A stretch of DNA of 32,000 bases, from assembly GCA_027031765.1 (NCBI GenBank), contig JALVPN010000077.1:1-32000 (forward strand), read 5' to 3'. Shown here piece by piece: positions 5,759 through 18,298 of this stretch. Position numbers and translations under genes: made by a program. The stretch comes from Promethearchaeota archaeon. Its GTDB lineage: Archaea > Asgardarchaeota > Thorarchaeia > Thorarchaeales > Thorarchaeaceae. Numbering within the stretch: the stretch's first letter is position 1; every line of letters begins with the position of its first letter. The notes under the pieces are model-generated. The model saw only the letters and a list, made by a program, of their open reading frames with translations, was not told the origin of the DNA and did not search any database.

Positions 5759-7831
5759 ATGACGACAGCCACAGAAGACAGGGTCGACACCAAGGAGGAG
5801 CCAACCGAGGAGGAACTCGTCCCCGACGACGTCGTCACAGACCTCACCACGTTTGTGAAGGGGCTCCCGGGTGCCGTCTGGTCTCGGCTGTCGTCATGGC
5901 GCCGCCATGCCCCGGACTCGCCGAGCAGGTGGGAACGCCTGCACGGGTTCATGAACGACCCACGTACGAATGGCAGGCTCTTGCTGGAACGGCTGAAGAC
6001 GAGGGCGCAGTCAGGATACCGCAACCTCCGGAGAGAGATGGACTCACTGTCATGGGTGCAACTGATGGCCGTCCTCTTCACCTTCGGCCTTTTCCTTGTG
6101 GCCCCACTGCTCAGCGTCATCCAGTACTCCTTCACGTACTATGGACAGCCATCAGTGCAGCACTTCATCAACCTCTTCTCTGACCCGAACATCTGGCCCT
6201 GGCACTATGATGCGCCGAGTCAGACATGGTACTCGTTCGTCCACCTTGACACGGTCCATGTCAGTGGCAATACCGTTGCAGTCCGTGGGTGGGACTTTGG
6301 GTCAATAGTCAACTCGATATACGTGGCCATAGTCGTGACAGTCCTCTCGGTCATTATTGGCGTGTTCCTTGCCTTTGTCGTTGCGAGGTACGATTTCTTT
6401 GGCAAGCGGGTCATCCGGACCCTGCTCATATTTCCAATCCTGGCCACACCCTTTGTGGGGGCCATTGGTATCAAGGCATTCCTCGGCCCGGCCGGTGTGA
6501 TCAACAACCTCTTCTACACCGCCCTCGGATGGTGGCCATACCGCATTGTCATCGAGGGGCTGGCCGCGGCCATATTCATCCAGACATTCTCCTTCTTTTC
6601 ACTGGTATACCTCAATGCCTACTCGTCCTTCATGGGAATTGACCCCTCCCTTGAGGAGCAGGCAGAGAACCTCGGTGCAACCGGGTTCACACTGTTCCGT
6701 ACTGTCACCCTGCCGCTTGCAATGCCGGGCATACAGGCCGGCGCGATATTGACGTTCATACTGAGCATGGAAGACCTCGGCACGCCAATCGTGTTCTACG
6801 ACACGGCTGACAACCAGACGACAAAGACCCTTGCATATCAGGTCTTTGACAGCATTGCCACCGGGGCTGGCACCATCCACCCCAAGGGCCCGGCCCTGGG
6901 CATGATACTGCTCGCATTCGCCCTCATCGGCTTCCTTGCCATCCGCAAGTATGCCGCACTGCGGTCGTATGAGGCCGGCACCAAGGGCGGCCAGTGGAAC
7001 CCGAGGACCCGGTGGCTGAGCGGTCGTGCCACACTGCTGCTCTACATCATATTGGTGCCCCTGCTGTTCCTGGCCCTGATACCCCAGATCAGCGTCATCA
7101 TCCTCTCGTTTGCCGGTGCGTGGCCGACGAACGCGGTACTGCCAGAGTGGACCCTCGGGAACTACCAGTACCTTGCGGACTACCCAGAGGTCGTACAGTC
7201 GATAGACCTGACACTCATCTACGGTGCGATTGCCACCGTGTTCATTGTCCTGCTGGGGACAAGCGCTGCTTACATCATAGCACGCAAGGAGATACCGGGC
7301 AAGACCGCATTCGACCTGCTCGTGACGTCGCCCATCGCACTACCCGGGATAGTCATCGCGACGGGGTACTTTACGCTCTTCTACAACACGCCGCTGTTCC
7401 CACCAGGGGGCCCGGCATTCCTCATCACAATGTCGTATACGGTACGGAAGTTCCCCTTCACCGTCAGGGCAGCGTATGCAGGACTACAGTCCACACCCGT
7501 TACCCTCGAAGAAGCATCACAGAGTGTGGGGGCGAGCAGGAACCAGACCTTCATGAAGATCACACTGCCGCTGATTGGCGTGAGCGTGCTGGCAGGCTCA
7601 CTCCTGTCATTCGTCTACTCTGTGAGCGAGGTCAGCACGAGCCTGATATTGGGAAGCGTGGGGAGGGAACAGGCGCCCATGACCTTCTGGACAAAGGAAA
7701 TCCTCGAGGCACAGGGAGGGACGAACCCGGCAGCGTGCCTCGGCGTGCTGATGATGAGCCTACAGATGGTGGTCATAACCATCACCAACAAGATCCTCGG
7801 GGCGAGGTCTTCTGCAATAACAGGCATATGA
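5759..7831 (+). CDS. ABC transporter permease, fused two-module FbpB/ThiP type
   Basis: About 12 hydrophobic segments and two EAA loops (LEEQAENLGAT, LEEASQSVGAS). Confidence 0.9.
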   Translation: MTTATEDRVDTKEEPTEEELVPDDVVTDLTTFVKGLPGAVWSRLSSWRRHAPDSPSRWERLHGFMNDPRTNGRLLLERLKTRAQSGYRNLRREMDSLSWVQLMAVLFTFGLFLVAPLLSVIQYSFTYYGQPSVQHFINLFSDPNIWPWHYDAPSQTWYSFVHLDTVHVSGNTVAVRGWDFGSIVNSIYVAIVVTVLSVIIGVFLAFVVARYDFFGKRVIRTLLIFPILATPFVGAIGIKAFLGPAGVINNLFYTALGWWPYRIVIEGLAAAIFIQTFSFFSLVYLNAYSSFMGIDPSLEEQAENLGATGFTLFRTVTLPLAMPGIQAGAILTFILSMEDLGTPIVFYDTADNQTTKTLAYQVFDSIATGAGTIHPKGPALGMILLAFALIGFLAIRKYAALRSYEAGTKGGQWNPRTRWLSGRATLLLYIILVPLLFLALIPQISVIILSFAGAWPTNAVLPEWTLGNYQYLADYPEVVQSIDLTLIYGAIATVFIVLLGTSAAYIIARKEIPGKTAFDLLVTSPIALPGIVIATGYFTLFYNTPLFPPGGPAFLITMSYTVRKFPFTVRAAYAGLQSTPVTLEEASQSVGASRNQTFMKITLPLIGVSVLAGSLLSFVYSVSEVSTSLILGSVGREQAPMTFWTKEILEAQGGTNPAACLGVLMMSLQMVVITITNKILGARSSAITGI

Positions 7832-7840
7832 GGTGACATC

Positions 7841-8998
7841 ATGGTCGAGATCAGACTTGAGGACCTGAGAAAGACCTTCGGAGATGTCGTGGCCACAGAC
7901 CGTGTCACTCTGACCCTGAAGGAGGGACAACTGTCAACACTGCTCGGGCCAAGCGGCTGTGGGAAGACCACGCTGCTGCGGCTGATTGCAGGCTTCTACA
8001 CACCTGACAGCGGGCGGATATACTTTGACGACCGTGATGTCACGGATGTCCCGCCCCACAAACGGAACACAGGCATGTGCTTCCAGAACTATGCCCTGTG
8101 GCCCCACATGACCGTGTTCGAGAACATAGCCTACGGCCTGAAGCTCAAGCGCATCAACGGGATGAAGTACACCAAGAGTGCCATAGAGCGGAGGGTGAGA
8201 GAGGCCCTGGAACTCGTCCGTCTGGAAGGGCTCGGTGACAGGCACATACACCAGCTCTCTGGTGGACAGCAGCAGAGGGTGGCCCTGGCCAGAGCACTTT
8301 CCATCGAACCGGATGTGCTCCTGCTGGACGAGCCGCTCTCCAACCTGGATGCCAAGCTCAGACTGGAGATGCGCGAGGAGATAATCAGGATCCAGAAAGA
8401 GCTGAGGATAACCACGGTCTACGTGACACACGACCAGCGGGAGGCACTCAGCATCTCCGACATGGTGGCAGTGATGGACCGGGGATACGTACAGCAGTTT
8501 GGCCCTCCAAGAGAGATCTACGCGAGGCCCCAGACCATATTCGTCGCGGACTTCATAGGCCAGTGCACCTTCATCGACGGCGTCATAGAAACAGTAGGCG
8601 AAGAGCTCCATGTCCGCCTGCCCAATGGTGCACTGATCAAGGGTGTCGGGACAATTGATGGCTACCCCTTCGAAGAGGGCGAACAGGTGAAGTGTGCAGT
8701 ACGGCCCGAAGACCTTCTCATGAGCCGCTCGGACAGCTCCGACAACGAGATTGCCGGTGTCGTGACACGTACCATATACGTGGGCAATTCGCTTGAGGTC
8801 TACTTCAAGGTCGGCGACATACCGGCGGAGGCCCTGTTGCCGCCCGACGCTGACGTCAAGATTGGTGACGAGCTCCATCTGTACGCCCCGGTCCGGGATG
8901 TGATGGTGCTCCCACTTGGTGGAGTCCACGCCCTCGAGAAGGTGCCGGGACACTACATGGCACGTCAGACCGCCCCTACGACCGCTTCGAGTGCCTAG
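7841..8998 (+). CDS. ABC transporter ATP-binding protein (PotA/FbpC family) with C-terminal TOBE-like region
   Basis: Walker A GPSGCGKT, signature LSGGQQQR, Walker B LLLDE, H-loop VTHD. Confidence 0.93.
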   Translation: MVEIRLEDLRKTFGDVVATDRVTLTLKEGQLSTLLGPSGCGKTTLLRLIAGFYTPDSGRIYFDDRDVTDVPPHKRNTGMCFQNYALWPHMTVFENIAYGLKLKRINGMKYTKSAIERRVREALELVRLEGLGDRHIHQLSGGQQQRVALARALSIEPDVLLLDEPLSNLDAKLRLEMREEIIRIQKELRITTVYVTHDQREALSISDMVAVMDRGYVQQFGPPREIYARPQTIFVADFIGQCTFIDGVIETVGEELHVRLPNGALIKGVGTIDGYPFEEGEQVKCAVRPEDLLMSRSDSSDNEIAGVVTRTIYVGNSLEVYFKVGDIPAEALLPPDADVKIGDELHLYAPVRDVMVLPLGGVHALEKVPGHYMARQTAPTTASSA

Positions 8999-10994
8999 TC
9001 TGCACAGCGACACCACGACTGAATGCCAGCATCTCGGGCCCGGTCAGGAGTGCACGCCCCACGCCCACCATCTGCCTGTCGGGGCCCAGGACCACCACCT
9101 CCTCTCCGGCCCGCAGGTCATCACTGGCCCATGCCACGAACTTTGCAAGGGCCGAGCGGCCCTTGGCAACATATTCGGCAGCCTCCTCCTCCATGACAAC
9201 ATGGTACACCTCGTCGAGCCCCGCGTCAATGAGCAGCTGGCCACCCGAATAGGTGGGGGTAAGCAGCCCCGTAGTCGGTACCAGTGTGAACACCAGCTCA
9301 TCACCGGACAGGACATGCCTCACCTTGCCCGTGCTCCGCGATGTCCTCACATCCAGGCGTGACACATCGGACGCGTCAAGCTGCAGACCCCACTGGAACG
9401 CGACGAGTGCGGTGAGTTTCCTTTGCCAGTAGACAGCGCTGCCCGCCGGCGGCATGTGGTCCAGCACACTGGACATGGAGTCAATACGTGTGACACCGGG
9501 GACATGCTCAGAGAGGCGGTCGGTGGGTACAGGTCGCGACAGCCACAGTGCCTCTTCGTACTCGATGCTGTTGACCAGGGCCTGCAGACGCCGTCCTGCC
9601 ACTGCGAGGGTCTCGCTGTCGAGAGATGATGGGAACACGCACTGCTGGGCAGGATGGACATGCTCCAGTTCCCAGGGCACCACACCAATAGGAGTGACGA
9701 AGAACAGTAATGTGTCGTCCTGTGATGTTTCTCGCACCCTGTCGACGAGTGGTCCGGTCGTGTCTGCAAAGGGCGGGTCACCGAGAGGGGGTACGAACAC
9801 AATGGTGCGTGCCCGCCGGAACGGGTATCTTGTGGCGACGCGGTGGCTGAAACGTAGCACCGCCGGGTGACGTGTCGTCTCGGCGCCTGTGAAGAGCACG
9901 GAGGAGGGGTTCGCAACGGGGTCGTGCCGCTCGATGAGGTCGATGTGCTCCATCATGGCCTGGAATGCCTCATACAGTGCAGGGTGAGCACGTGCACGCA
10001 TGGCTGCAAGCTCGAAGAGCTTGCCCTCTGCAATTGCCACCCGCACACGTCGCATCTCGGCAGCACTCACATACAGGTTGTGACGCATCAACACGTAGGC
10101 CCGCTCACTCTTGGAATACGCCATGAGCATGTCCACCGAGTCACCGGCACAGACGGGACACTCACACGGCAGTTCCCGCAGCTCATCGAGGTGTGCAGTG
10201 CCAGTGGGGAGCAGCATGCGGTCCGTATCTGCGAACTTGGCATACGACGCAGAGTCGAAGAGGTCGCAGCCGAGCAGGGCGGCCTGTGCGAAGAACATTG
10301 GGTGACCACACCCAAAGAGGTGCACGGGTCTGTCAGGCGGCAGGTGCTGTTTCGCAGCGAGGACTGCACGCACTATGTCCGCATACCGGTACTGTTCCAT
10401 GAGGGGGACCGCACCACCCACAGGGTGCACATCGAAGTCCATCTTTGAGAGCTCCCGTGCAGCGTGGGCGCGCAGATCAGGATATGAACCGCCCTGCACG
10501 GTCCCGGCCAGCAGCATGTCCCCCTTCTCAGCAGTAGAGACCGCAGCACGTTCTAGCGAGACCCGGACATCCTCCTCTACCCGCTGGCGCCCGACATCCG
10601 GGTCCGAGAAGACATCGAGGATTGTGCCGATGTCAGAACCAATCTCCCGCTGGAAACGCACAATGTCAATGGGGTCAATCTCGTCCTCTGGGAGGTCGTG
10701 CACGTACATCTGGAACGTCCCGGAGTCCGTCATCACGGGGCCTGAGAACCCCAGCAGGCTGTGTACACCCTCTTCAAGGGCACGGTCACGGAACTTGGCG
10801 CGTGAACGGATGATGTACGAGTTGGTGATGACCATCTGGTAACCAAAGACCGACGCCATCTCTGCCGGTGGTATCTCGGACTTGCCCGGGTGCACAACAG
10901 GCATTAGGAGGGGGGTGCGCACCGTACCATGGGCAGTGCGGAGGAGCCCCAGCCTGGCAAGACCGTCCTTGGCACGGATCTCGAAGTGACTCAT
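8976..10994 (-). CDS. tgtA: Archaeosine tRNA-guanine(15) transglycosylase with C-terminal PUA domain
   Basis: GTVRTPLLMPV, catalytic MTDSGTFQ, GGAVP, HLFGCG, DLFDSA and the Zn site CECPVC...HN. The C-terminus is PUA-like (GRSALAKFV...GEEVVV...GVAVQTRH). Confidence 0.93.
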   Translation of the reverse strand: MSHFEIRAKDGLARLGLLRTAHGTVRTPLLMPVVHPGKSEIPPAEMASVFGYQMVITNSYIIRSRAKFRDRALEEGVHSLLGFSGPVMTDSGTFQMYVHDLPEDEIDPIDIVRFQREIGSDIGTILDVFSDPDVGRQRVEEDVRVSLERAAVSTAEKGDMLLAGTVQGGSYPDLRAHAARELSKMDFDVHPVGGAVPLMEQYRYADIVRAVLAAKQHLPPDRPVHLFGCGHPMFFAQAALLGCDLFDSASYAKFADTDRMLLPTGTAHLDELRELPCECPVCAGDSVDMLMAYSKSERAYVLMRHNLYVSAAEMRRVRVAIAEGKLFELAAMRARAHPALYEAFQAMMEHIDLIERHDPVANPSSVLFTGAETTRHPAVLRFSHRVATRYPFRRARTIVFVPPLGDPPFADTTGPLVDRVRETSQDDTLLFFVTPIGVVPWELEHVHPAQQCVFPSSLDSETLAVAGRRLQALVNSIEYEEALWLSRPVPTDRLSEHVPGVTRIDSMSSVLDHMPPAGSAVYWQRKLTALVAFQWGLQLDASDVSRLDVRTSRSTGKVRHVLSGDELVFTLVPTTGLLTPTYSGGQLLIDAGLDEVYHVVMEEEAAEYVAKGRSALAKFVAWASDDLRAGEEVVVLGPDRQMVGVGRALLTGPEMLAFSRGVAVQTRHSKRS

Positions 10995-11272
10995 GATGGG
11001 TCATCACGGGCGGAGCTGCGCATTGGATGAATCTTTTGATAGTGCGAGGACTGCTGACGGGACGGGACACCACATGTGTGTGACGCCTGCACGCGGGCTG
11101 CTGGTGACATGCGACATGGTGGCATGATACAGTACATGTGGGTATGGGCGGGTGTACACGGTCTGGTGACTGACCGATGGGGTACAGGGGCCAGCACCGG
11201 CCCCTCCATGAAGTGGGGCTGGCCAGTGGGGCGACTGCCAGTGGAATCAATGCTATAAGTCAAAGGGGCAAC

Positions 11273-12571
11273 ATGCACTGCAAGATGGAAACAGGCACCG
11301 CCGTGCTAGTCCAGCGCAGATCGCCTGAAGAACCAGACCTGATGGACGAGTTCGAGGCCCTTGCTGAAACGGCAGGCTACACGGTCATCGGAAAGTTCGA
11401 CGTAGTGGGCCCGCCGTCTGCTAGGTTCGGCATCCGGACCGGGAAGGTCGAGGAGATAGGGACATGGATTGAACACCGACAGCCGGACTTTGTGCTCTTC
11501 GCGCCGGCGCTCAGGTCGGGCCAGATGTTCAGGTTGATGGAGGAGTGGGGGGTCGAGGTACGCGACAGGACACAGCTCATCCTTGAGATCTTTGACAGGC
11601 ACGCACGTACACCACAGGCAAAGCTCCAGATAGAACAGGCACGTCTGAGCTACGAGCTGCCGTTCCAGAGGCACCAGATCAGGATGCGCCTGCAGAGGGA
11701 GCACACAGGGGACAGGCCGACCACCGAACAGGTCGGTGCTGGAGAGGACCTGCTCAACATGAGGGTGAGGGAGATACGCAGGCGGATAGCCCACATACGT
11801 CGCAGGCTCACCGAGATCTGGCGGGCCCAGGACCTGAAGCGGAAACAGCGTGACCAGAGGGGCTTCTACGAGGTGGCGCTGGCAGGCTATACGAATGCCG
11901 GGAAGAGCACCCTGCACCGGGCACTGACCGGCTCCGAGGTCGAGGTCGCAGACGGGCTGTTCACCACCCTTTCGACAAAGGCGTCGTTGCTCGGGACACC
12001 CGGGCGGCGCACAGTGCTGATAGACTCTGTGGGCTTCATCAGTTCGCTCCCCCGCGACCTGTTGGATGCGTTCCGGACCACCCTGCAGGAGATTGCCGAT
12101 GCCGATGTCATTGTCCTCGTAGTGGACGGGTCGGACAGCACGGACGAGATCATGAGGAAGACCGCGACCTGTACCAGCACGTTCCTGGAGATAGGTGCCA
12201 ATGGTATACCAGTCGTGGTGGCCATGAACAAGGTCGACCTGCTGACGGAGGCCGAGGTCGAGGAGAGGCTGGACGTACTCAGGAGCACATACGAGAGCGT
12301 TGTCCCGGTCTCAGCCATGCATGGGATCAACCTGCAGACACTCGTGGCCGAGGTCGAGAAACGGCTGCCACCTCTTGAACACTACCAGCTCTCATTGGAG
12401 TATGGTGACGAGTCTGCATCACTCATATCGTGGCTGCACGAGGTGGGACGCATTGAGCACAAGGAGTACAGTGCACATGGAGTGCGGTTGGATGTCGCAC
12501 TCACGGCGGACATTGCTGCCAAGTTGTCGAGGATAGTCCCACCGGACAGGATCCGCAGGAGAGGCCACTGA
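11273..12571 (+). CDS. hflX: Ribosome-associated GTPase HflX
   Basis: LILEIFDRHA, QIEQARLSY, G1 GYTNAGKS, LFTTL, G3 DSVGF, G4 NKVD. Start is at ATG 11273 or 11285 (CTATAAG box at about 11253). The ORF-track start at 11177 is probably too long. Confidence 0.92.
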   Translation: MHCKMETGTAVLVQRRSPEEPDLMDEFEALAETAGYTVIGKFDVVGPPSARFGIRTGKVEEIGTWIEHRQPDFVLFAPALRSGQMFRLMEEWGVEVRDRTQLILEIFDRHARTPQAKLQIEQARLSYELPFQRHQIRMRLQREHTGDRPTTEQVGAGEDLLNMRVREIRRRIAHIRRRLTEIWRAQDLKRKQRDQRGFYEVALAGYTNAGKSTLHRALTGSEVEVADGLFTTLSTKASLLGTPGRRTVLIDSVGFISSLPRDLLDAFRTTLQEIADADVIVLVVDGSDSTDEIMRKTATCTSTFLEIGANGIPVVVAMNKVDLLTEAEVEERLDVLRSTYESVVPVSAMHGINLQTLVAEVEKRLPPLEHYQLSLEYGDESASLISWLHEVGRIEHKEYSAHGVRLDVALTADIAAKLSRIVPPDRIRRRGH

Positions 12572-12646: not shown

Positions 12647-13312
12647 GTGATAGCCCTTCGACTGAAGGCACCAGAGAAAATCCTTGAGGCGCTGGAGGGA
12701 CACGAGAAGATAGTGCTCTTTGGGGACTCCGGGTGTGCCCAGCTGTGTGATGTGGGCGGACTGCTCCAGCTCGAGGACATGGAGGACTTCCTGACAAGGA
12801 ACGGGAAGACCGTCCTCGGTGCTGTGTTCGTCGAGGGTGGCATCTGCAATGGCCCTGTCTTCAGGAGTACGGTGCAGGAGCAACGGGCAGTGATAGACAG
12901 CGCCGACGCACTGCTGGTACAGGCCTGTGGTGTCGCAGTACAGACCATTGTAGAACACATCCCGGAGAAGGAGGCCTTCCCTGCGGCTGACTCGATGTTC
13001 CTCGGGGTTTCAAGGGGGCGTGGGACACACTCCGAGCTCTGCGCGATGTGCGGGGACTGCATCCTCCACCTGACCGGCGGGATATGCCCACTGGCCCGCT
13101 GTGCGAAGGGGATACTCAACGGCCCCTGCGGTGGCTCCATGAACGGCAAGTGCGAGAGGGATGAGGACACTGACTGCGCATGGCAGCTCATCTACGACAG
13201 GCTGCGGGCACTGGGAAAGCTCGACAACATCCGGAAGGTGTGGGAGATGAAGGACTGGAGGAGCTCACATGGGCCGCGGGTCATCTCGCACCATGGAGGC
13301 GCAATAGCCTAA
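12647..13312 (+). CDS. metV: Methylenetetrahydrofolate reductase C-terminal-domain (MetV-like, Cys-rich Fe-S/Zn) subunit
   Basis: GCAQLC and ACGVAVQ, plus the Cys cluster CAMCGDC...GICPLARCAKGILNGPCGG...GKCE...CAW. It is immediately upstream of metF. GTG start with SD GGAGGT. Confidence 0.8.
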   Translation: MIALRLKAPEKILEALEGHEKIVLFGDSGCAQLCDVGGLLQLEDMEDFLTRNGKTVLGAVFVEGGICNGPVFRSTVQEQRAVIDSADALLVQACGVAVQTIVEHIPEKEAFPAADSMFLGVSRGRGTHSELCAMCGDCILHLTGGICPLARCAKGILNGPCGGSMNGKCERDEDTDCAWQLIYDRLRALGKLDNIRKVWEMKDWRSSHGPRVISHHGGAIA

Positions 13313-13360
13313 AGATAATAAGGGGTCTCAGCCGGTCGAGTCCAGAAACACGAGGAGAGG

Positions 13361-14293
13361 ATAACACTCGGTAGCGGAACACGGCTGCAACAGTCACTGG
13401 AAAGAGAAGGCCTGACCATCACCGGGGAAATCGTACCCCCCCGCGGTGCCAGCCCGAAGGCCCTGCTTGAGAAGGCACGGGCGGTCGCTGCGGACTGTGT
13501 CGCCATCAACATCACGGACAACATACGCGGGAACCCAGCAATGAGCAGCATTGCAGCCAGCCACCTGATATGTGACGTGGGTGCCGAACCAATACTCCAA
13601 CTGTCGACACGCGACAGGAACCGCATACTGCTTGAGAGCGAGCTGTATGGCGCCCATGCGCTTGGCATCAGGAACGTCCTCTTTGTGACTGGCGACCACA
13701 CGCTGCTCGGCACCCATCCGCATGCAAAGATGGTCTATGACCTCGACTCGATACAGGCCCTCCAGCTGGCCTCGGAGCTCATGCATGGCAGGGACCTGGC
13801 GGGAAAGGAGCTCGATGGTACACCGTCGTTCTATCTGGGCTCCACCTTCAACCCGTACGCAGACCCCATGGAGCTCCATGCCTGGCGGGTCGAGAAGAAG
13901 CGGGATGCCGGGGCACAGTTCTTCCAGACGCAGGCAGTATACGATGTCGGGCGGTTCAGAGACTTCATGGCACAGATACGGGGCCTCGGAGTGTACGTGC
14001 TCGCCGGGATATACGTCCTGAGAGGGCCGAAGACCGCGAGGTTCATGGACGAGCGCGTGCCGGGGATATACATCCCAGAGGAGATAATTGAACGGCTCGA
14101 GAAGGCTGGGGAGGGCCTGAGTGGCAAGGAGGCCCGGGCCCGCAGACGGGAGGAGGGCATAGCGATAGCCCTTGAGACCACAAGGGAGGTGATGAGGGTG
14201 CCGGGGGTGCACGGTATTGACCTGATGGGGACGGGCTGGGAGCCACACATCACACGCTTCATCGAATCTGCAAGCGGACAGCAGGAGGGATAG
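13361..14293 (+). CDS. metF: Methylenetetrahydrofolate reductase (MetF); start codon uncertain
   Basis: My translation upstream of the track's ATG 13541 continues as LTITGEIVPPRG...AINITDN. It is followed by EPILQLSTRDRN, LFVTGDH, KKRDAGAQFFQTQAVYD and GIDLMG. There is no ATG/GTG/TTG between the in-frame stops at 13310-13321 and 13541. Confidence 0.85.
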   Translation: MTLGSGTRLQQSLEREGLTITGEIVPPRGASPKALLEKARAVAADCVAINITDNIRGNPAMSSIAASHLICDVGAEPILQLSTRDRNRILLESELYGAHALGIRNVLFVTGDHTLLGTHPHAKMVYDLDSIQALQLASELMHGRDLAGKELDGTPSFYLGSTFNPYADPMELHAWRVEKKRDAGAQFFQTQAVYDVGRFRDFMAQIRGLGVYVLAGIYVLRGPKTARFMDERVPGIYIPEEIIERLEKAGEGLSGKEARARRREEGIAIALETTREVMRVPGVHGIDLMGTGWEPHITRFIESASGQQEG

Positions 14294-14297
14294 GAGG

Positions 14298-15215
14298 TTG
14301 TTCGTGTTCAAGAAGGAGCAACAGGTAATAGAGATTGGAGGCGTGAGCGTAGGCGGGCAGCCCGGGGAGCACCCCACCGTACTGATAGGTGGCATGTTCT
14401 TCAAGGGCCAGCCCATCGTCAAGAACACAAAGCAGGGGATATTCGACGAGGAGATGGCCCGTGAGTGGGTCGACCTTGCCAACGACATGGTGATCCGCAC
14501 AGGACACCCGCTCATCATACAGGTGTACGGCCGCACCGAGACCGCCATGGAGCGTCACATAGGCTGGCTCGCAGAGAACTTCGACGGGCCCTTCATGTTC
14601 GAGTCGACGAACGCAAAGGCGCGGGTGAGAGGGATTGAGTACTGCAACGAGACCGGCCTCCATGACAGGGCAATCTACAACTCGGTCAACCTGTCGATGA
14701 AGGACGATGAGAAACAGGTCCTGTCCAACAGCCGCATTGACTCCGCAGTTGTCCTTGGCTGGTCGCCACGCGCCACGAGCCTTGAGGAACGGATGGAAAC
14801 AGTAGGGGCAATGATTACGGAGGCCCGTGAGATGGGGCTCCAGCGGCTGCTCGTGGACCCTGCAACTCTGCCCGTGGGCGCAGGGTACGGACTCGAACTG
14901 CGCACTATGATTGCGATAAAGTCACAGCACGGTCTGCCGACCTGTCTGGGCCCCCACAATGCGCCCTCGGCGTGGCAGTTCATCAAGCAGCCCGGCCTTG
15001 ACGACGAGCCGGCACACCTCTCGGCAGTGGTCGCGGCAACGGTGGCGGCTCAGCTGTTCGCCACAGATGCGGTCATGTATGGCTCGATGGCACGGACGAG
15101 GGAGGCCTTCATTGCGGTTGCCCTGATAGGGAATGCACTCGCAGCCACTGCGGCCGAGGCATCCCATGCACTCGGGGTGGACAGGCAGCTCTTTGAACCG
15201 CCCACATCGTTCTGA
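14298..15215 (+). CDS. mtrH: MtrH-family methyl-pterin:corrinoid methyltransferase, divergent paralog 1
   Basis: MFVFKKEQQVIEIGGVSVGGQPGEHPTVL, IYNSVN, GLPTCLGPHNA and VMYG, all MtrH-family hallmarks. TTG start with SD. Confidence 0.8.
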   Translation: MFVFKKEQQVIEIGGVSVGGQPGEHPTVLIGGMFFKGQPIVKNTKQGIFDEEMAREWVDLANDMVIRTGHPLIIQVYGRTETAMERHIGWLAENFDGPFMFESTNAKARVRGIEYCNETGLHDRAIYNSVNLSMKDDEKQVLSNSRIDSAVVLGWSPRATSLEERMETVGAMITEAREMGLQRLLVDPATLPVGAGYGLELRTMIAIKSQHGLPTCLGPHNAPSAWQFIKQPGLDDEPAHLSAVVAATVAAQLFATDAVMYGSMARTREAFIAVALIGNALAATAAEASHALGVDRQLFEPPTSF

Positions 15216-15238: not shown

Positions 15239-15931
15239 GTGGGGCAGAGTGCTGACAGGCAGTGGCCGCCGGTGCCAGGCGACTTCATTGTGGGCGACCC
15301 GGGACACCCGGTGGCCATATGCACGCTCGGTAAGAAGATTGATGTTGACTGTGAGTACGCCATAATCGGGACGTGCAAGACCGAGAACATAGGGATAGAG
15401 AGGGTCATTGTGAACATAGTCTCGAACCCAAGGGTCAGGTACCTGATACTCGCAGGCCCAGAGGTGCCGGGTCACAGGACGGGACAGTCCCTCAAGAGCC
15501 TGTATGAGAACGGGGTCGATAGCAAGACCCGGCGGATTGTGGGTGCGGAGGGGGCGATACCGTTCATTGAGAACGTGCCCCTTGAGGCGGTCGAGCGGTT
15601 CCGTCAGCAGGTACAGCTCGTCAACATGCTGAACATCACCGACCCGTCGAGGATTGCGGACACCGCTGCAGAGCTCGCACGCAAAGACCCCGGCGAGTTC
15701 CCGGACGGACCCATGTGGGTGGACTTTGGCACGCACCAGGGTGCCACCCGCGTCCTCACTCCGGGCGGTGCGGTTGCCATTGTCCCGGAGCTCGGTATTG
15801 CGCTCGACCCGTGGACGTCGCTGGTGTCATCACGGGACGCCATGGTGATAGTCTCAGTGCACCCATCAACCGTGGTCGCAGAGTTGCAGGAACAGGACGG
15901 TGGACACGTGATTGTTGTGAGGGAGGTATGA
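15239..15931 (+). CDS. mtrA: MtrA-family corrinoid protein, soluble, with C-terminal extension
   Basis: WPPVPGDFIVGDP, VAICTLG, KTENIGIERVIVNIVSNP, the cobamide-ligand motif EVPGHRTGQ, GAIPFIEN and KDPG. No convincing C-terminal TM helix. Confidence 0.88.
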   Translation: MGQSADRQWPPVPGDFIVGDPGHPVAICTLGKKIDVDCEYAIIGTCKTENIGIERVIVNIVSNPRVRYLILAGPEVPGHRTGQSLKSLYENGVDSKTRRIVGAEGAIPFIENVPLEAVERFRQQVQLVNMLNITDPSRIADTAAELARKDPGEFPDGPMWVDFGTHQGATRVLTPGGAVAIVPELGIALDPWTSLVSSRDAMVIVSVHPSTVVAELQEQDGGHVIVVREV

Positions 15932-15937
15932 CAGACA

Positions 15938-16873
15938 GTGTTCGTGTTCGAACGTGAGCAGCAGATCTTTGACATCGGTGGTGTCACGGTCGGTGGCACT
16001 CCGGGAGAGAACCCGACCGTCCTTGCCGGGACGATATTCTACTCCGGTGACAAGACCGTCCGCGACGCCCGTACGGGCGAGTTCGATGCGGCGGAGGCGG
16101 AGAGGCTGGTCACGACACAGGACGAGCTGTCAGACATGACGGGCAACCCGGCCCTCGTCCAGGTGTTTGCACAGTCGCCGCGTGCTGTGGAGAGGTACAT
16201 CGACTTTGTGAGCGAGGTCACTGATGCGCCGTTCCTGATAGACTCCACAGACCCTGAGACACGGGTCGCGGGGCTCCGTCATGCGGAGGAGGTGGGGCTG
16301 CTCGACAGGGCGGTGTACAACTCCGTCAACATCTCAATGACCGAGGACGAACGGATGGCCCTCTCCGAGATGGGACAGCTGTGTGCGATAGTCCTTGCTT
16401 TCAACCCCCATGACGCGACGATTGCAGGGCGCAGGGCCGTCCTCGAGTCAGGGACGCCGGAGATGGGAGAGGGGCTGCTTGAGACCTGTGAGAAGGTGGG
16501 CATCAACAGGCCACTCATAGACACAGCAATGACCTCCCTCGGGGCCGGGGCGGGGCCCGCCGTGGCATTCACCCTCGTTGCAAAGAGCCTCTATGGCTAT
16601 CCCACCGGGTGCGGTATACACAATGCCGTGTCGTCGTGGCCATGGCTGCTGGGACTGAAGCGACACGACAAAGAGGCATACCGCACCTGTGATGTCGCGT
16701 CCAACGTCATCGTACAGCTGATGGGCGGTGACTTTGTCCTCTACGGGCCCATAAAGAATGCCAGGCTCGTGTTCCCTGTGGCTGCAATGGCAGACGCGCT
16801 CGCGGCCGAGTGCGTGAGCATGGAGCTCGGTGTCAGTCCGGCCGATGGGCACCCGTTCAGGCGGCTGGTATAG
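15938..16873 (+). CDS. mtrH: MtrH-family methyltransferase, paralog 2 (closer to canonical)
   Basis: MFVFEREQQIFDIGG...GENPTVLAGTIFY, PFLIDST, VYNSVN, GYPTGCGIHNA and GDFVLYGPI. Confidence 0.88.
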   Translation: MFVFEREQQIFDIGGVTVGGTPGENPTVLAGTIFYSGDKTVRDARTGEFDAAEAERLVTTQDELSDMTGNPALVQVFAQSPRAVERYIDFVSEVTDAPFLIDSTDPETRVAGLRHAEEVGLLDRAVYNSVNISMTEDERMALSEMGQLCAIVLAFNPHDATIAGRRAVLESGTPEMGEGLLETCEKVGINRPLIDTAMTSLGAGAGPAVAFTLVAKSLYGYPTGCGIHNAVSSWPWLLGLKRHDKEAYRTCDVASNVIVQLMGGDFVLYGPIKNARLVFPVAAMADALAAECVSMELGVSPADGHPFRRLV

Positions 16874-16888
16874 GACGGGTGTAGCAGT

Positions 16889-18298
16889 ATGCCCACAAGG
16901 CCCACATTTGTGCGCCCGCCACGCATGGGCACGCTGTCACTCAGGAAGGGGCCGTTCTATACGGTGGCCTCTGTAGAACTCGGTAATACCACCACCAAGT
17001 GTGTGGTAGTGACGACCGACCTCAGGACAGCGCGCATGTACATGCTGGGAAAGCTCGTGCGTCTGACGCGTGAGGCAAGACCACCGCGGGAGGGGGAGCT
17101 GGTCTTTGGGAGGACGCTCACTGGCACACCGCTCACACGGGAGTCCGTGGCAGAGCTGGTCGCCGAGACCCTCACGGGAGCTGTAAGGCAGGTGAGGCTG
17201 GACATTGAGCGCGACCTCCACTTCGTCGTCCGGTCCACGGGCGTGACCGCAGGGTTCGCCACACCGTCAGAGGTCGGCGAGATGGTCAGGGCCCTTGCCC
17301 AGGGCTGTCTGCAGGCCGGGATCCCGCCACGGAAGATGACAGCATCAATCTCACTCGACAGGGTCCCACCAGGGCTCCGGCGCTACAGCCTCCTTGACAG
17401 GGTCTACTTTGATGGGGCGGTGGCCGGGACGCGTCCCCCGGCGGCAACGGAAATCGTAGCAAATGAAATGGAGGGGGAGCTGGTCACTGCCGGACTGAAG
17501 GGTGCCGCAAAGAACACGCAGGTCGACTTCAGGAACCCTGTCATGACCCTGGACTTCGGCACCACACTGGCCGGACGCGTGACTGACGAGTCGTACCCCT
17601 ATGCAGATACCATTGGCTCGTTTGCGGGGCTTGGTGGGGCGATACCGGACGCCCTCGTCCGTGGTGCAGGCCTTGCAGACCCGGTCACTGGTTGCGTCCT
17701 TGATGTCGAGGCCCCGAAACGGTACAGCGTGGAGGTGGGCGAGTGGCTCGAAAAAGTGCACTCGCTTGTGGATGTGCGGACAGTCCCAGCTGGTACCACC
17801 AGGTTCGGCACGGTGCCCGTAGACACCAGGGCAGCGGACGAGTCAGGGGTCGTGCTGATAGGCGTCGACGCTGGGAGGAACGGGTCTGCCCTGTCGGAGC
17901 TGGAGAGACTGGGCGCGGAGGTCTACGAGGCGGGCGGACTGGGACTGCTGATGGGCCTTGTCGACCGGGTGCAGGTACAGACAGTGCAGAGGCTCGTGAG
18001 CACCGCGGAGGAGGAGGGCATCGTGCTCCCCCGGACGGCACTTGGCCTGACAGGAAGGGGGATTACGACTGGCACGAAGCCGCGACTGGTCACAAAGTAC
18101 CTGACCACTGCGAGCGGCGAGCCCTGGACAGAGTCGCATGTCCTGCTCATGGTAGAGGACGGGCTTGCCCTCGGAGCTGCGGTAGCGGCCCGCTGCATGA
18201 ACTCCATGGGGACTCCCAAGCACCCGATAGGTGGCCGTCAGGGTGACGGGTGCGTGCTGGCCGCGCGGCGCGAGGCACAGAAGGGCCGTACTGGATGA
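16889..18298 (+). CDS. Methanogenesis marker protein 14 family (DUF2114), ASKHA/actin-like ATPase fold
   Basis: YTVASVELGNTTTK, FVVRSTGV, VANEMEGEL, DFRNPVMTLDFGTTLAG and the C-terminal EDGLALGAAVAARCMNSMGTP..PIGG. The family was recognised from memory of its conserved motifs. Confidence 0.8.
   Translation: MPTRPTFVRPPRMGTLSLRKGPFYTVASVELGNTTTKCVVVTTDLRTARMYMLGKLVRLTREARPPREGELVFGRTLTGTPLTRESVAELVAETLTGAVRQVRLDIERDLHFVVRSTGVTAGFATPSEVGEMVRALAQGCLQAGIPPRKMTASISLDRVPPGLRRYSLLDRVYFDGAVAGTRPPAATEIVANEMEGELVTAGLKGAAKNTQVDFRNPVMTLDFGTTLAGRVTDESYPYADTIGSFAGLGGAIPDALVRGAGLADPVTGCVLDVEAPKRYSVEVGEWLEKVHSLVDVRTVPAGTTRFGTVPVDTRAADESGVVLIGVDAGRNGSALSELERLGAEVYEAGGLGLLMGLVDRVQVQTVQRLVSTAEEEGIVLPRTALGLTGRGITTGTKPRLVTKYLTTASGEPWTESHVLLMVEDGLALGAAVAARCMNSMGTPKHPIGGRQGDGCVLAARREAQKGRTG

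Follow-up and report, generated by a model that had tools for sequence, protein, structure and literature searches.

The stretch of DNA analyzed here, referred to as the window, comprises 32,000 nucleotides (positions 1 to 32,000 of contig JALVPN010000077.1) from the Promethearchaeota archaeon assembly GCA_027031765.1, a Thorarchaeia metagenome-assembled genome (MAG) of 2.95 Mb that is 95.3% complete. Our subject is the open reading frame at 16889-18298 on the plus strand, whose 469-residue product belongs to the DUF2114 family, also termed methanogenesis marker 14, and its relation to the corrinoid protein MtrA encoded nearby. The gene is part of a tightly spaced row on the plus strand with the order metV-like, metF, divergent mtrH, mtrA, canonical mtrH, DUF2114, cofE and larC. 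The upstream mtrH stops at 16873 with a TAG codon, leaving the gap of 15 nucleotides (16874-16888) that an initial annotation made from the bare sequence had already pointed out. In the MtrA protein (15239-15931) H79 and the GAIP/EN meander are invariant, and a hydrophobic C-terminal anchor is missing. The window additionally encodes Ras-family GTPase and WD40 genes. The features of the row are:

12647-14293, plus strand: metV-like gene (12647-13312) and metF (13541-14293), PF12225 and PF02219; reductase pair heading the operon, also kept upstream in the other Thorarchaeia loci
14298-15215, plus strand: divergent mtrH paralogue, 305 residues; PF02007 250 bits; below the TIGR01114 cut-off
15239-15931, plus strand: soluble mtrA, the predicted client, 230 residues; PF04208 191 bits; cobalt-ligand His79; no transmembrane helix
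15938-16873, plus strand: canonical mtrH, 311 residues; PF02007 364 bits; TIGR01114 376 bits, above the cut-off
16874-16888, plus strand: mtrH-DUF2114 spacer, 15 nucleotides; contains the purine-rich GGACGGGTG, a possible ribosome-binding site
16889-18298, plus strand: DUF2114 / methanogenesis marker 14 gene, 469 residues; PF09887, TIGR03285; predicted ASKHA fold
18365-20594, plus strand: cofE (18365-19138; TIGR01916 196 bits) and larC (19254-20594; LarC1 and LarC2 models)

The family membership suggested by the initial annotation was borne out by profile searches. The protein matches the Pfam model DUF2114 (PF09887) with 598.3 bits (E-value 1e-179, model positions 1-448 of 449, cut-off 25) and the model TIGR03285 methan_mark_14 with 589.5 bits (cut-off 274, model positions 1-445 of 446). 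At the level of these matches, which lie far beyond chance, the product is confirmed as a genuine full-length DUF2114 protein. It carries all of the family-wide motifs, namely ELGNTTTK, NEMEGEL, DFGTT, TGR and the R-C...G-G...C tail. Homologues from Thorarchaeia that align from residues 1-8 onward support the ATG start. The closest homologues, with 57-66% identity, all stem from Thorarchaeota MAGs, and identity across the set from Thorarchaeia to methanogens ranges from 37 to 66%. A Pfam scan of the protein returned DUF2114 only and no DDR, EutA or other match, and neither the protein nor the family profile found more than chance matches in sequence searches of the PDB (E-value > 0.1).

Conservation was read in an alignment of 15 sequences from Thorarchaeia to methanogens and in a set of 146 sequences. 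Both phosphate-loop-like motifs named in the initial annotation, VELGNTTTK and LDFGTTLAG, are real and invariant across the alignments. The conserved elements of the protein are:

16973-16999, plus strand: PHOSPHATE-1 loop VELGNTTTK, residues 29-37; E30, G32, N33, T35 and K37 invariant, conservation 0.95-1.0 in the 146 sequences
17264-17362, plus strand: family-specific helix-loop insertion ALAxGC...PPRKMT, residues 126-158; predicted MtrA-docking element; A135, G139 and C140 invariant
17462-17482, plus strand: NEMEGEL motif, residues 192-198, start of the inter-domain helix; invariant in all 15 aligned sequences
17549-17575, plus strand: PHOSPHATE-2 loop LDFGTTLAG, residues 221-229; D222, G224, T225, T226 and G229 invariant
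18050-18061, plus strand: TGRG at the putative adenosine-motif position, residues 388-391; G389 and R390 invariant
18191-18268, plus strand: C-terminal tail R-C-M-N-S...P-x-G-G...C...R, residues 435-460; conserved, with invariant Cys436 and Cys455

A glutamate replaces the usual aspartate in the PHOSPHATE-1 loop. N192 of the NEMEGEL motif is invariant even in divergent paralogues, and D254 is invariant from Thorarchaeia to methanogens. TGRG would be the adenosine motif, judging from its position in the modelled fold. As a set, the invariant motifs appear to fit the pattern of a working nucleotide site, and going by these residues the protein probably uses ATP. C140, C436 and C455 are conserved to 98-100% and C38 to 92% in the 146 sequences, while neither a ferredoxin-like domain nor a CxxC cluster motif was found in the protein. 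A metal site formed by Cys436 and Cys455 together with Cys140 is a possibility. A bridging [4Fe-4S] site of the HgdC/BcrAD type was considered and not adopted because the invariant cysteines are located elsewhere in the chain.

To place the protein structurally, an AlphaFold2 model was built on 36 homologues, which reached a predicted local distance difference test score (pLDDT) of 94.2 and a predicted template-modelling score (pTM) of 0.93. Exhaustive structural comparison of this model reveals a clear ASKHA fold over residues 21-448, with 151 chains at Z ≥ 8, and Foldseek returned 371 matches with an E-value ≤ 1e-3. The best structural match is 9gai_C, a BcrA/D-type ATPase (Z 17.8, root-mean-square deviation 3.4, 250 residues aligned); further matches are CoaX (Z 17.5), FtsA (Z 17.3), Kae1 (Z 16.4), the HadI activator (Z 15.9) and EutJ (Z 15.3), and FtsA, PilM and EutJ all rank among the best (Z 14.4-17.3). 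The shared ASKHA core covers about 250 of the 469 residues, the remainder being the insertions 126-190 and 255-335 and the conserved C-terminal tail. A fold search of the ESM Atlas found only the family itself and then an FGGY kinase with a TM-score of 0.53. The model has the two RNase-H-like domains of this fold (beta-beta-beta-alpha-beta-alpha-beta-alpha), which enclose the nucleotide cleft. The ASKHA fold predicted in the initial annotation is upheld by this comparison (pLDDT 94, Z up to 17.8), and both the family and the fold assignment are solid. A special kinship to the B12 reactivases named there is not supported: DdrA (2d0o_A) appears at rank 37 (Z 13.0, root-mean-square deviation 4.2, 268 residues aligned), RACo is at rank 14 in Foldseek (E-value 3.5e-6, TM-score 0.32), and hhalign of the family alignment with the RACo-like protein of the host gives a probability of 0.7%. 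The position of RACo outside the top 50 of the wide structural search is no evidence against a common fold. As judged from the model, DUF2114 is an isolated ASKHA family, to which DdrA and RACo stand no nearer than the remaining families of this fold.

The complex of the DUF2114 protein with MtrA residues 1-172 was predicted in three runs with custom alignments. It reached an interface score (ipSAE) of 0.61 (runs 0.58, 0.64 and 0.61), compared to 0.00 for the best control, with at least 72% of the contacts in common between runs and a partner pLDDT of at least 85. The pass mark applied here is reached by 58 of 80 solved complexes and by 2 of 110 mismatched pairs, counts that with custom alignments are only a rough guide. 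A solved structure of a comparable complex does not exist, so that the prediction probably did not pass by reproducing a known structure. The predicted interface consists of the helix-loop 126-158 on the side of DUF2114 and of residues 48-55, 77-79 and 105-112 on the side of MtrA, which on the M. fervidus structure 5LAA correspond to the Glu54 loop, the His84 ligand loop and the GAIPFxEN "meander". Together these elements bear the exposed corrin ring in 5LAA, and no parts of MtrA are more conserved (Wagner 2016, PMC4915002). In this prediction DUF2114 clamps onto MtrA at its cobamide face. Paralogues of about 350-400 residues from MSBL1/Persephonarchaea have lost residues ~143-170, the PHOSPHATE-1 loop and the cysteine tail. 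The loss of this part of the docking element is consistent with the predicted interface; according to Adam 2022 (PMC9635834), Mtr has been lost in this lineage. On two contigs (L085 5688-9044 and L086 5802-9206), these divergent MSBL1 paralogues adjoin, in divergent orientation, a split MetE pair of an N-domain-like and a catalytic-domain gene; the contig of the MSBL1 paralogue P0161 is too short to reveal neighbours. A separate observation concerns MtrA itself: residues 148-154 of the Thorarchaeia protein read R-K-D-P-G-E-F, compared to the K-D-P-G-A motif of methanogen MtrA, which is reportedly recognised by Connectase, another former "methanogenesis marker" with MtrA as its substrate (PMC7980362).

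A cobamide-loading chaperone is a serious alternative. Such a protein would occupy the vacant cofactor site of apo-MtrA and use ATP to load the cobamide or to swap it, much as DdrA/EutA-style exchangers or B12 delivery chaperones do. In the complex modelled free of cofactor, the docking helix is in direct contact with the corrin-bearing loops including that of His79. MtrA produced in E. coli is free of cobalamin and has to be loaded by unfolding and refolding, and the isolated protein holds cobalamin only weakly (PMC4915002); DdrA moreover shares the fold (Z 13.0). We nevertheless consider this function unlikely, as methyl-transfer corrinoid proteins fail via oxidation and not via damage of the cofactor, so that exchange would be an unexpected repair, no DdrB-like small subunit adjoins the DUF2114 gene, and DdrA is found no higher than rank 37 among the fold matches.

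The genomic context of DUF2114 was compared across archaea. In every Thorarchaeia locus with enough flanking sequence, about 20 in number, the order metF-mtrH-mtrA-mtrH-DUF2114-cofE-larC is preserved. In loci of the Methanobacteriales type DUF2114 lies 0.4-3.5 kb 3′ of mtrH on the same strand, and in Methanosarcinales, Methanococcales and Methanothrix the gene is found elsewhere in the genome. The neighbours in Methanosarcina, Methanolobus, Methanothermococcus and Methanothrix (FrhB-like, GTP cyclohydrolase, PTH2, PAC2 and thioredoxin) were set aside as unrelated housekeeping genes that give no functional hint. cofE and a two-domain gene of the larC family (nickel-pincer cofactor insertase) lie 3′ of DUF2114 in the window and in all Thorarchaeia loci with enough flank (L006-L022 and L042). 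One contig labelled "uncultured Bacteroidales bacterium" (L061) carries a Methanosarcina-like marker 14 gene with 48% identity to the query and a coordinate pattern as in Methanosarcina loci, and is probably a mis-binned archaeal contig.

Co-occurrence was counted in 400 Asgard genomes and in 201 genomes of the phylum containing Methanosarcina, the counts being descriptive only. Among the Asgard genomes, DUF2114 is present in 79 of the 85 members of the family to which the window belongs and in one other genome. MtrA domains occur in 24 Asgard genomes outside this family, 23 of which possess low-scoring MtrA-like fusions (84-162 bits, in frames of mostly ~500 residues), and DUF2114 is found in none of these 23. 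The sole outsider with a high-scoring MtrA (221 bits), G310, does carry DUF2114. This genome is 80% complete, with DUF2114 at G310:C91:8958-10274 (592 bits) and MtrA at G310:C86:1976-2458; its MtrA outscores every Thorarchaeia copy, and neither MtrE nor McrA was found in it. It may represent another remnant-bearing lineage or a binning artefact. In the second sample, DUF2114 and MtrA are both present in 127 genomes and both absent from 62, with DUF2114 alone in eight and MtrA alone in four. The corresponding numbers for DUF2114 and McrA are 104 with both, 59 with neither, 31 with DUF2114 alone and seven with McrA alone. DUF2114 is encoded by 26 of 26 genomes with MtrA and without McrA, compared to three of six with McrA and without MtrA. 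In both phylum samples DUF2114 tracks canonical MtrA and not McrA, which answers the comparison of mtrA and mcrA co-occurrence called for in the initial annotation. Its proposal that the client is MtrA and not MCR or the membrane subunits of Mtr agrees with synteny, co-occurrence and the docking predicted at the cobamide face. Four independent lines, namely synteny, the two co-occurrence samples and the modelled complex, lend good in silico support to MtrA as the client, and the mtrA-mtrH-DUF2114-mesA cluster of a second non-methanogen lineage, described below, points the same way.

The same data bear on the idea that DUF2114 is a CoaX-like small-molecule kinase or ligase of cofactor biosynthesis that lies near mtr only via common one-carbon metabolism. 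CoaX is a top fold match (Z 17.5), cofE follows DUF2114 in Thorarchaeia, and the GNT and DFGT motifs resemble those of type III pantothenate kinases. The distribution of the family, on the other hand, follows canonical MtrA and not the use of tetrahydromethanopterin or coenzyme F420, the predicted complex with MtrA passes its controls, and in Methanosarcina and Methanococcus loci the adjoining genes have nothing to do with the synthesis of cofactors. The gene is furthermore absent from ~314 other Asgard genomes and from Methanomassiliicoccales (PMC4153887). Such a kinase is therefore highly improbable in our judgement.

The genome content of the host agrees with the statement of the initial annotation that nothing of Mtr beyond mtrA and mtrH is left. 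The DUF2114 operon contains the sole MtrA gene and both MtrH genes of the host, and McrA, MtrD and MtrE were not found in the 95.3%-complete genome; MtrE and McrA are likewise absent from two near-closed relatives (G313 and G320). A gene of the RACo family is located at G000:C22:2086-3402 and encodes a protein of 438 residues with the RACo middle domain and the ASKHA domain and without the N-terminal Fe-S domain. The neighbours of this gene are a Usp gene, a tRNA synthetase and an M28 peptidase, and no corrinoid genes adjoin it.

A second non-methanogen lineage emerged from the 201-genome sample, in which 12 small genomes encode DUF2114 and MtrA and no McrA; MtrE is absent from all five of these that were tested. 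Two of the small genomes have contigs of 0.99 and 1.07 Mb, essentially the whole genome, and correspond by exact protein matches to "Methanosarcinales archaeon Met12" and a relative. Met12 is Ca. Serpentinarchaeum, a non-methanogenic member of the Methanocellales for which Mcr and "MtrABCDEGH" were described as lost (PMC11176372). Against this description, both Met12-type genomes keep mtrA, mtrH, a small open reading frame and DUF2114 in this order, directly followed by mesA, a methanogen-type core methionine synthase gene (NF002119, 328.6 bits, cut-off 258), the start of which overlaps the DUF2114 stop by 4 nucleotides in L090. A thyA-like gene is located 3′ of mesA in both genomes, and additionally mch in L089. 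The two clusters are:

G408:C1:340001-356000 (L090), minus strand: mtrA 9708-10295, mtrH 8762-9724, DUF2114 6797-8116, mesA 5871-6800
G477:C1:430001-446000 (L089): mtrA 6175-6825, mtrH 6835-7767, DUF2114 9269-10618, mesA 10624-11520

That a genome of ~1 Mb has kept this trio is an argument for viewing MtrA, MtrH and DUF2114 as a functional unit that depends neither on Mcr nor on the membrane subunits. MesA is predicted to draw its methyl group from MtrA (Price et al. 2021, PMC7857596), and in the Met12 lineage the trio appears to be kept for methionine synthesis. Since the host Thorarchaeon possesses no Meth_synt_2 gene, the methyl acceptor there must differ from that of Met12. A third adjacency of this kind was observed in a "Methanobacteriota archaeon" MAG (L023 9882-10796), in which a canonical mtr operon lies 5′ of DUF2114 and a MesA-like methionine synthase ~550 bp 3′ of it.

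The proximity to mesA lends some weight to a non-catalytic or regulatory role, in which DUF2114 would act as a cap shielding the Co(I) or methyl-Co(III) state of MtrA or would hand methyl-MtrA to an acceptor such as MesA, with the nucleotide serving as a conformational switch as in FtsA, PilM and EutJ. These three proteins are among the best fold matches (Z 14.4-17.3), mesA directly follows DUF2114 in the Met12-type genomes (with the 4-nucleotide overlap in L090), a MesA-like gene is found 550 bp 3′ in one methanogen MAG (L023), the MSBL1 paralogues adjoin the split MetE pair, and MesA is the predicted recipient of the methyl group of MtrA (PMC7857596). Set against this are the lack of a Meth_synt_2 gene in the host genome and of a MesA neighbour in most methanogen loci, and the strict invariance of both phosphate loops, which suggests real nucleotide chemistry. 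We regard a purely regulatory role as quite unlikely.

The leading reading of these data, which we hold tentatively and at just short of even chances, is an ATP-driven reactivation of MtrA from Co(II) to Co(I). The DUF2114 protein would be a nucleotide-binding ASKHA accessory protein dedicated to MtrA, whose helix-loop 126-158, found only in this family, would dock on the Glu loop, the His79 ligand loop and the GAIPxxEN meander of MtrA and would couple ATP to its reactivation once the cobalt has dropped to inactive Co(II). It would thereby be a functional analogue of RACo and RamA from an unrelated ASKHA family without an Fe-S domain of its own, servicing the soluble MetVF-MtrH-MtrA-MtrH methyl relay in the Thorarchaeon and the membrane Mtr complex in methanogens. 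Mtr requires Co(I), and to our knowledge all known ATP-dependent activators of methyl-transfer corrinoid proteins are ASKHA proteins that dock on the cofactor face. ATP-stimulated activation in cell extracts was reportedly described between 1988 and 1993; our search of the literature on ATP-dependent activation of Mtr yielded nothing usable. Three genomes with DUF2114, those of M. jannaschii and of a Methanobacterium and a partial Methanothermococcus MAG of 1.0 Mb, yielded no match to the RACo/RamA family. We consider DUF2114 the best candidate so far for the factor that keeps the cobalt of MtrA active.

Several points weigh against reactivation by DUF2114. The protein contains no Fe-S, flavin or other redox domain and offers three scattered invariant cysteines (C140, C436 and C455) only, and its fold is not specifically near that of RACo or DdrA. 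The host's own RACo-family gene (G000:C22:2086-3402) could serve MtrA instead. The complex was modelled without cobamide, so that apo-MtrA and holo-MtrA are indistinguishable in it, and the genomes counted for co-occurrence are interrelated, many of them being incomplete MAGs. A bolder version of the proposal, which we hold to be doubtful, is that DUF2114 is the long-missing Mtr activator and the founder of a new class of Fe-S-free ATP-dependent corrinoid activases. Its helix would cap the MtrA cobamide, and Cys140 or a Cys140/Cys436/Cys455 metal site would act at the cobalt. All methanogens that use Mtr would possess it, and Thorarchaeia and the non-methanogen "Serpentinarchaeum" would have kept it because their soluble MtrA still feeds anabolic methyl transfer, e.g. 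for methionine.

The association itself has precedents. Borrel et al. 2014 (PMC4153887) noted the absence of marker 14 (arCOG04866) from the Mtr-lacking Methanomassiliicoccales and, in several orders, its proximity to mtr operons, and put forward a function connected with Mtr. The family is listed as m26_DUF2114 by Adam et al. 2022 (PMC9635834), who reported it with the canonical MtrAH of Thorarchaeia. The view of the initial annotation that the family is specific to methanogens is outdated in light of these two studies (PMC4153887, PMC9635834). Our literature search found no functional study of and no mechanism proposal for DUF2114/marker 14, and the papers that could be searched describe neither its fold nor a surface for docking to MtrA. 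A structural paper of 2025 still terms the reductive activator of Mtr "as-yet uncharacterised" (PMC12774963). The present result is a refinement of the published association into a testable mechanism and not the discovery of a new occurrence.

Mtr catalyzes the only energy-conserving step common to most methanogenesis, and its cobamide must be returned to Co(I) after each accidental oxidation. DUF2114 is among the few universally conserved methanogenesis markers still without a function, for which binding to the corrin face of MtrA together with ATP use would be a concrete and testable assignment. Experiments would be far simpler with the soluble two-protein version of Thorarchaeia and Met12 than with the Mtr complex of the membrane. 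Since two lineages have kept this version after losing methanogenesis, the MtrAH remnant appears to serve the anabolic supply of methyl groups, in Met12 directly to the core methionine synthase.

When compared to characterized systems, DUF2114 resembles RACo and RamA (PF14574; 3ZYY, 4C1N) in its ASKHA ATPase fold and in having a methyl-transfer corrinoid protein as its putative client, and its predicted docking (ipSAE 0.61, a prediction only) is likewise on the cofactor face, as in RACo-CoFeSP. It differs from them in that a sequence relation is not detectable (hhalign 0.7%), the TM-score is ~0.32, and both a [2Fe-2S] or [4Fe-4S] domain and the RACo middle domain are absent. DdrA (2D0O) shares the ASKHA fold and services a B12 enzyme with ATP; however, DdrA and DdrB together exchange the cofactor of adenosylcobalamin enzymes, whereas no DdrB-like gene adjoins DUF2114. 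The best matches to the ASKHA core (Z 17.8 and 15.9) are the BcrA/D-HgdC-HadI "archerase" ATPases (9GAI_C, 4EHT, 1HUX), ATP-driven activators that deliver low-potential electrons as dimers of ~260 residues sharing a bridging [4Fe-4S] cluster. DUF2114 has ~200 extra residues, and its invariant cysteines are located in the domain I insertion and the C-terminal tail and could not be mapped to the cluster site. MtrH, MtrCDE and MtrI (9QTQ-9QTS) bind the same exposed corrin face of MtrA with folds unrelated to DUF2114. MtrI provides Cys40 as the upper axial ligand of the cobalt (PMC12774963); that Cys140 of DUF2114 approaches the cobalt is speculation. Within its own family (DUF2114/TIGR03285, arCOG04866, m26 of Borrel 2019 and Adam 2022, MMP1223) the protein has the same motifs and the same length, and differs from other members in that its host is a non-methanogen with only a soluble MtrA and two MtrH genes.

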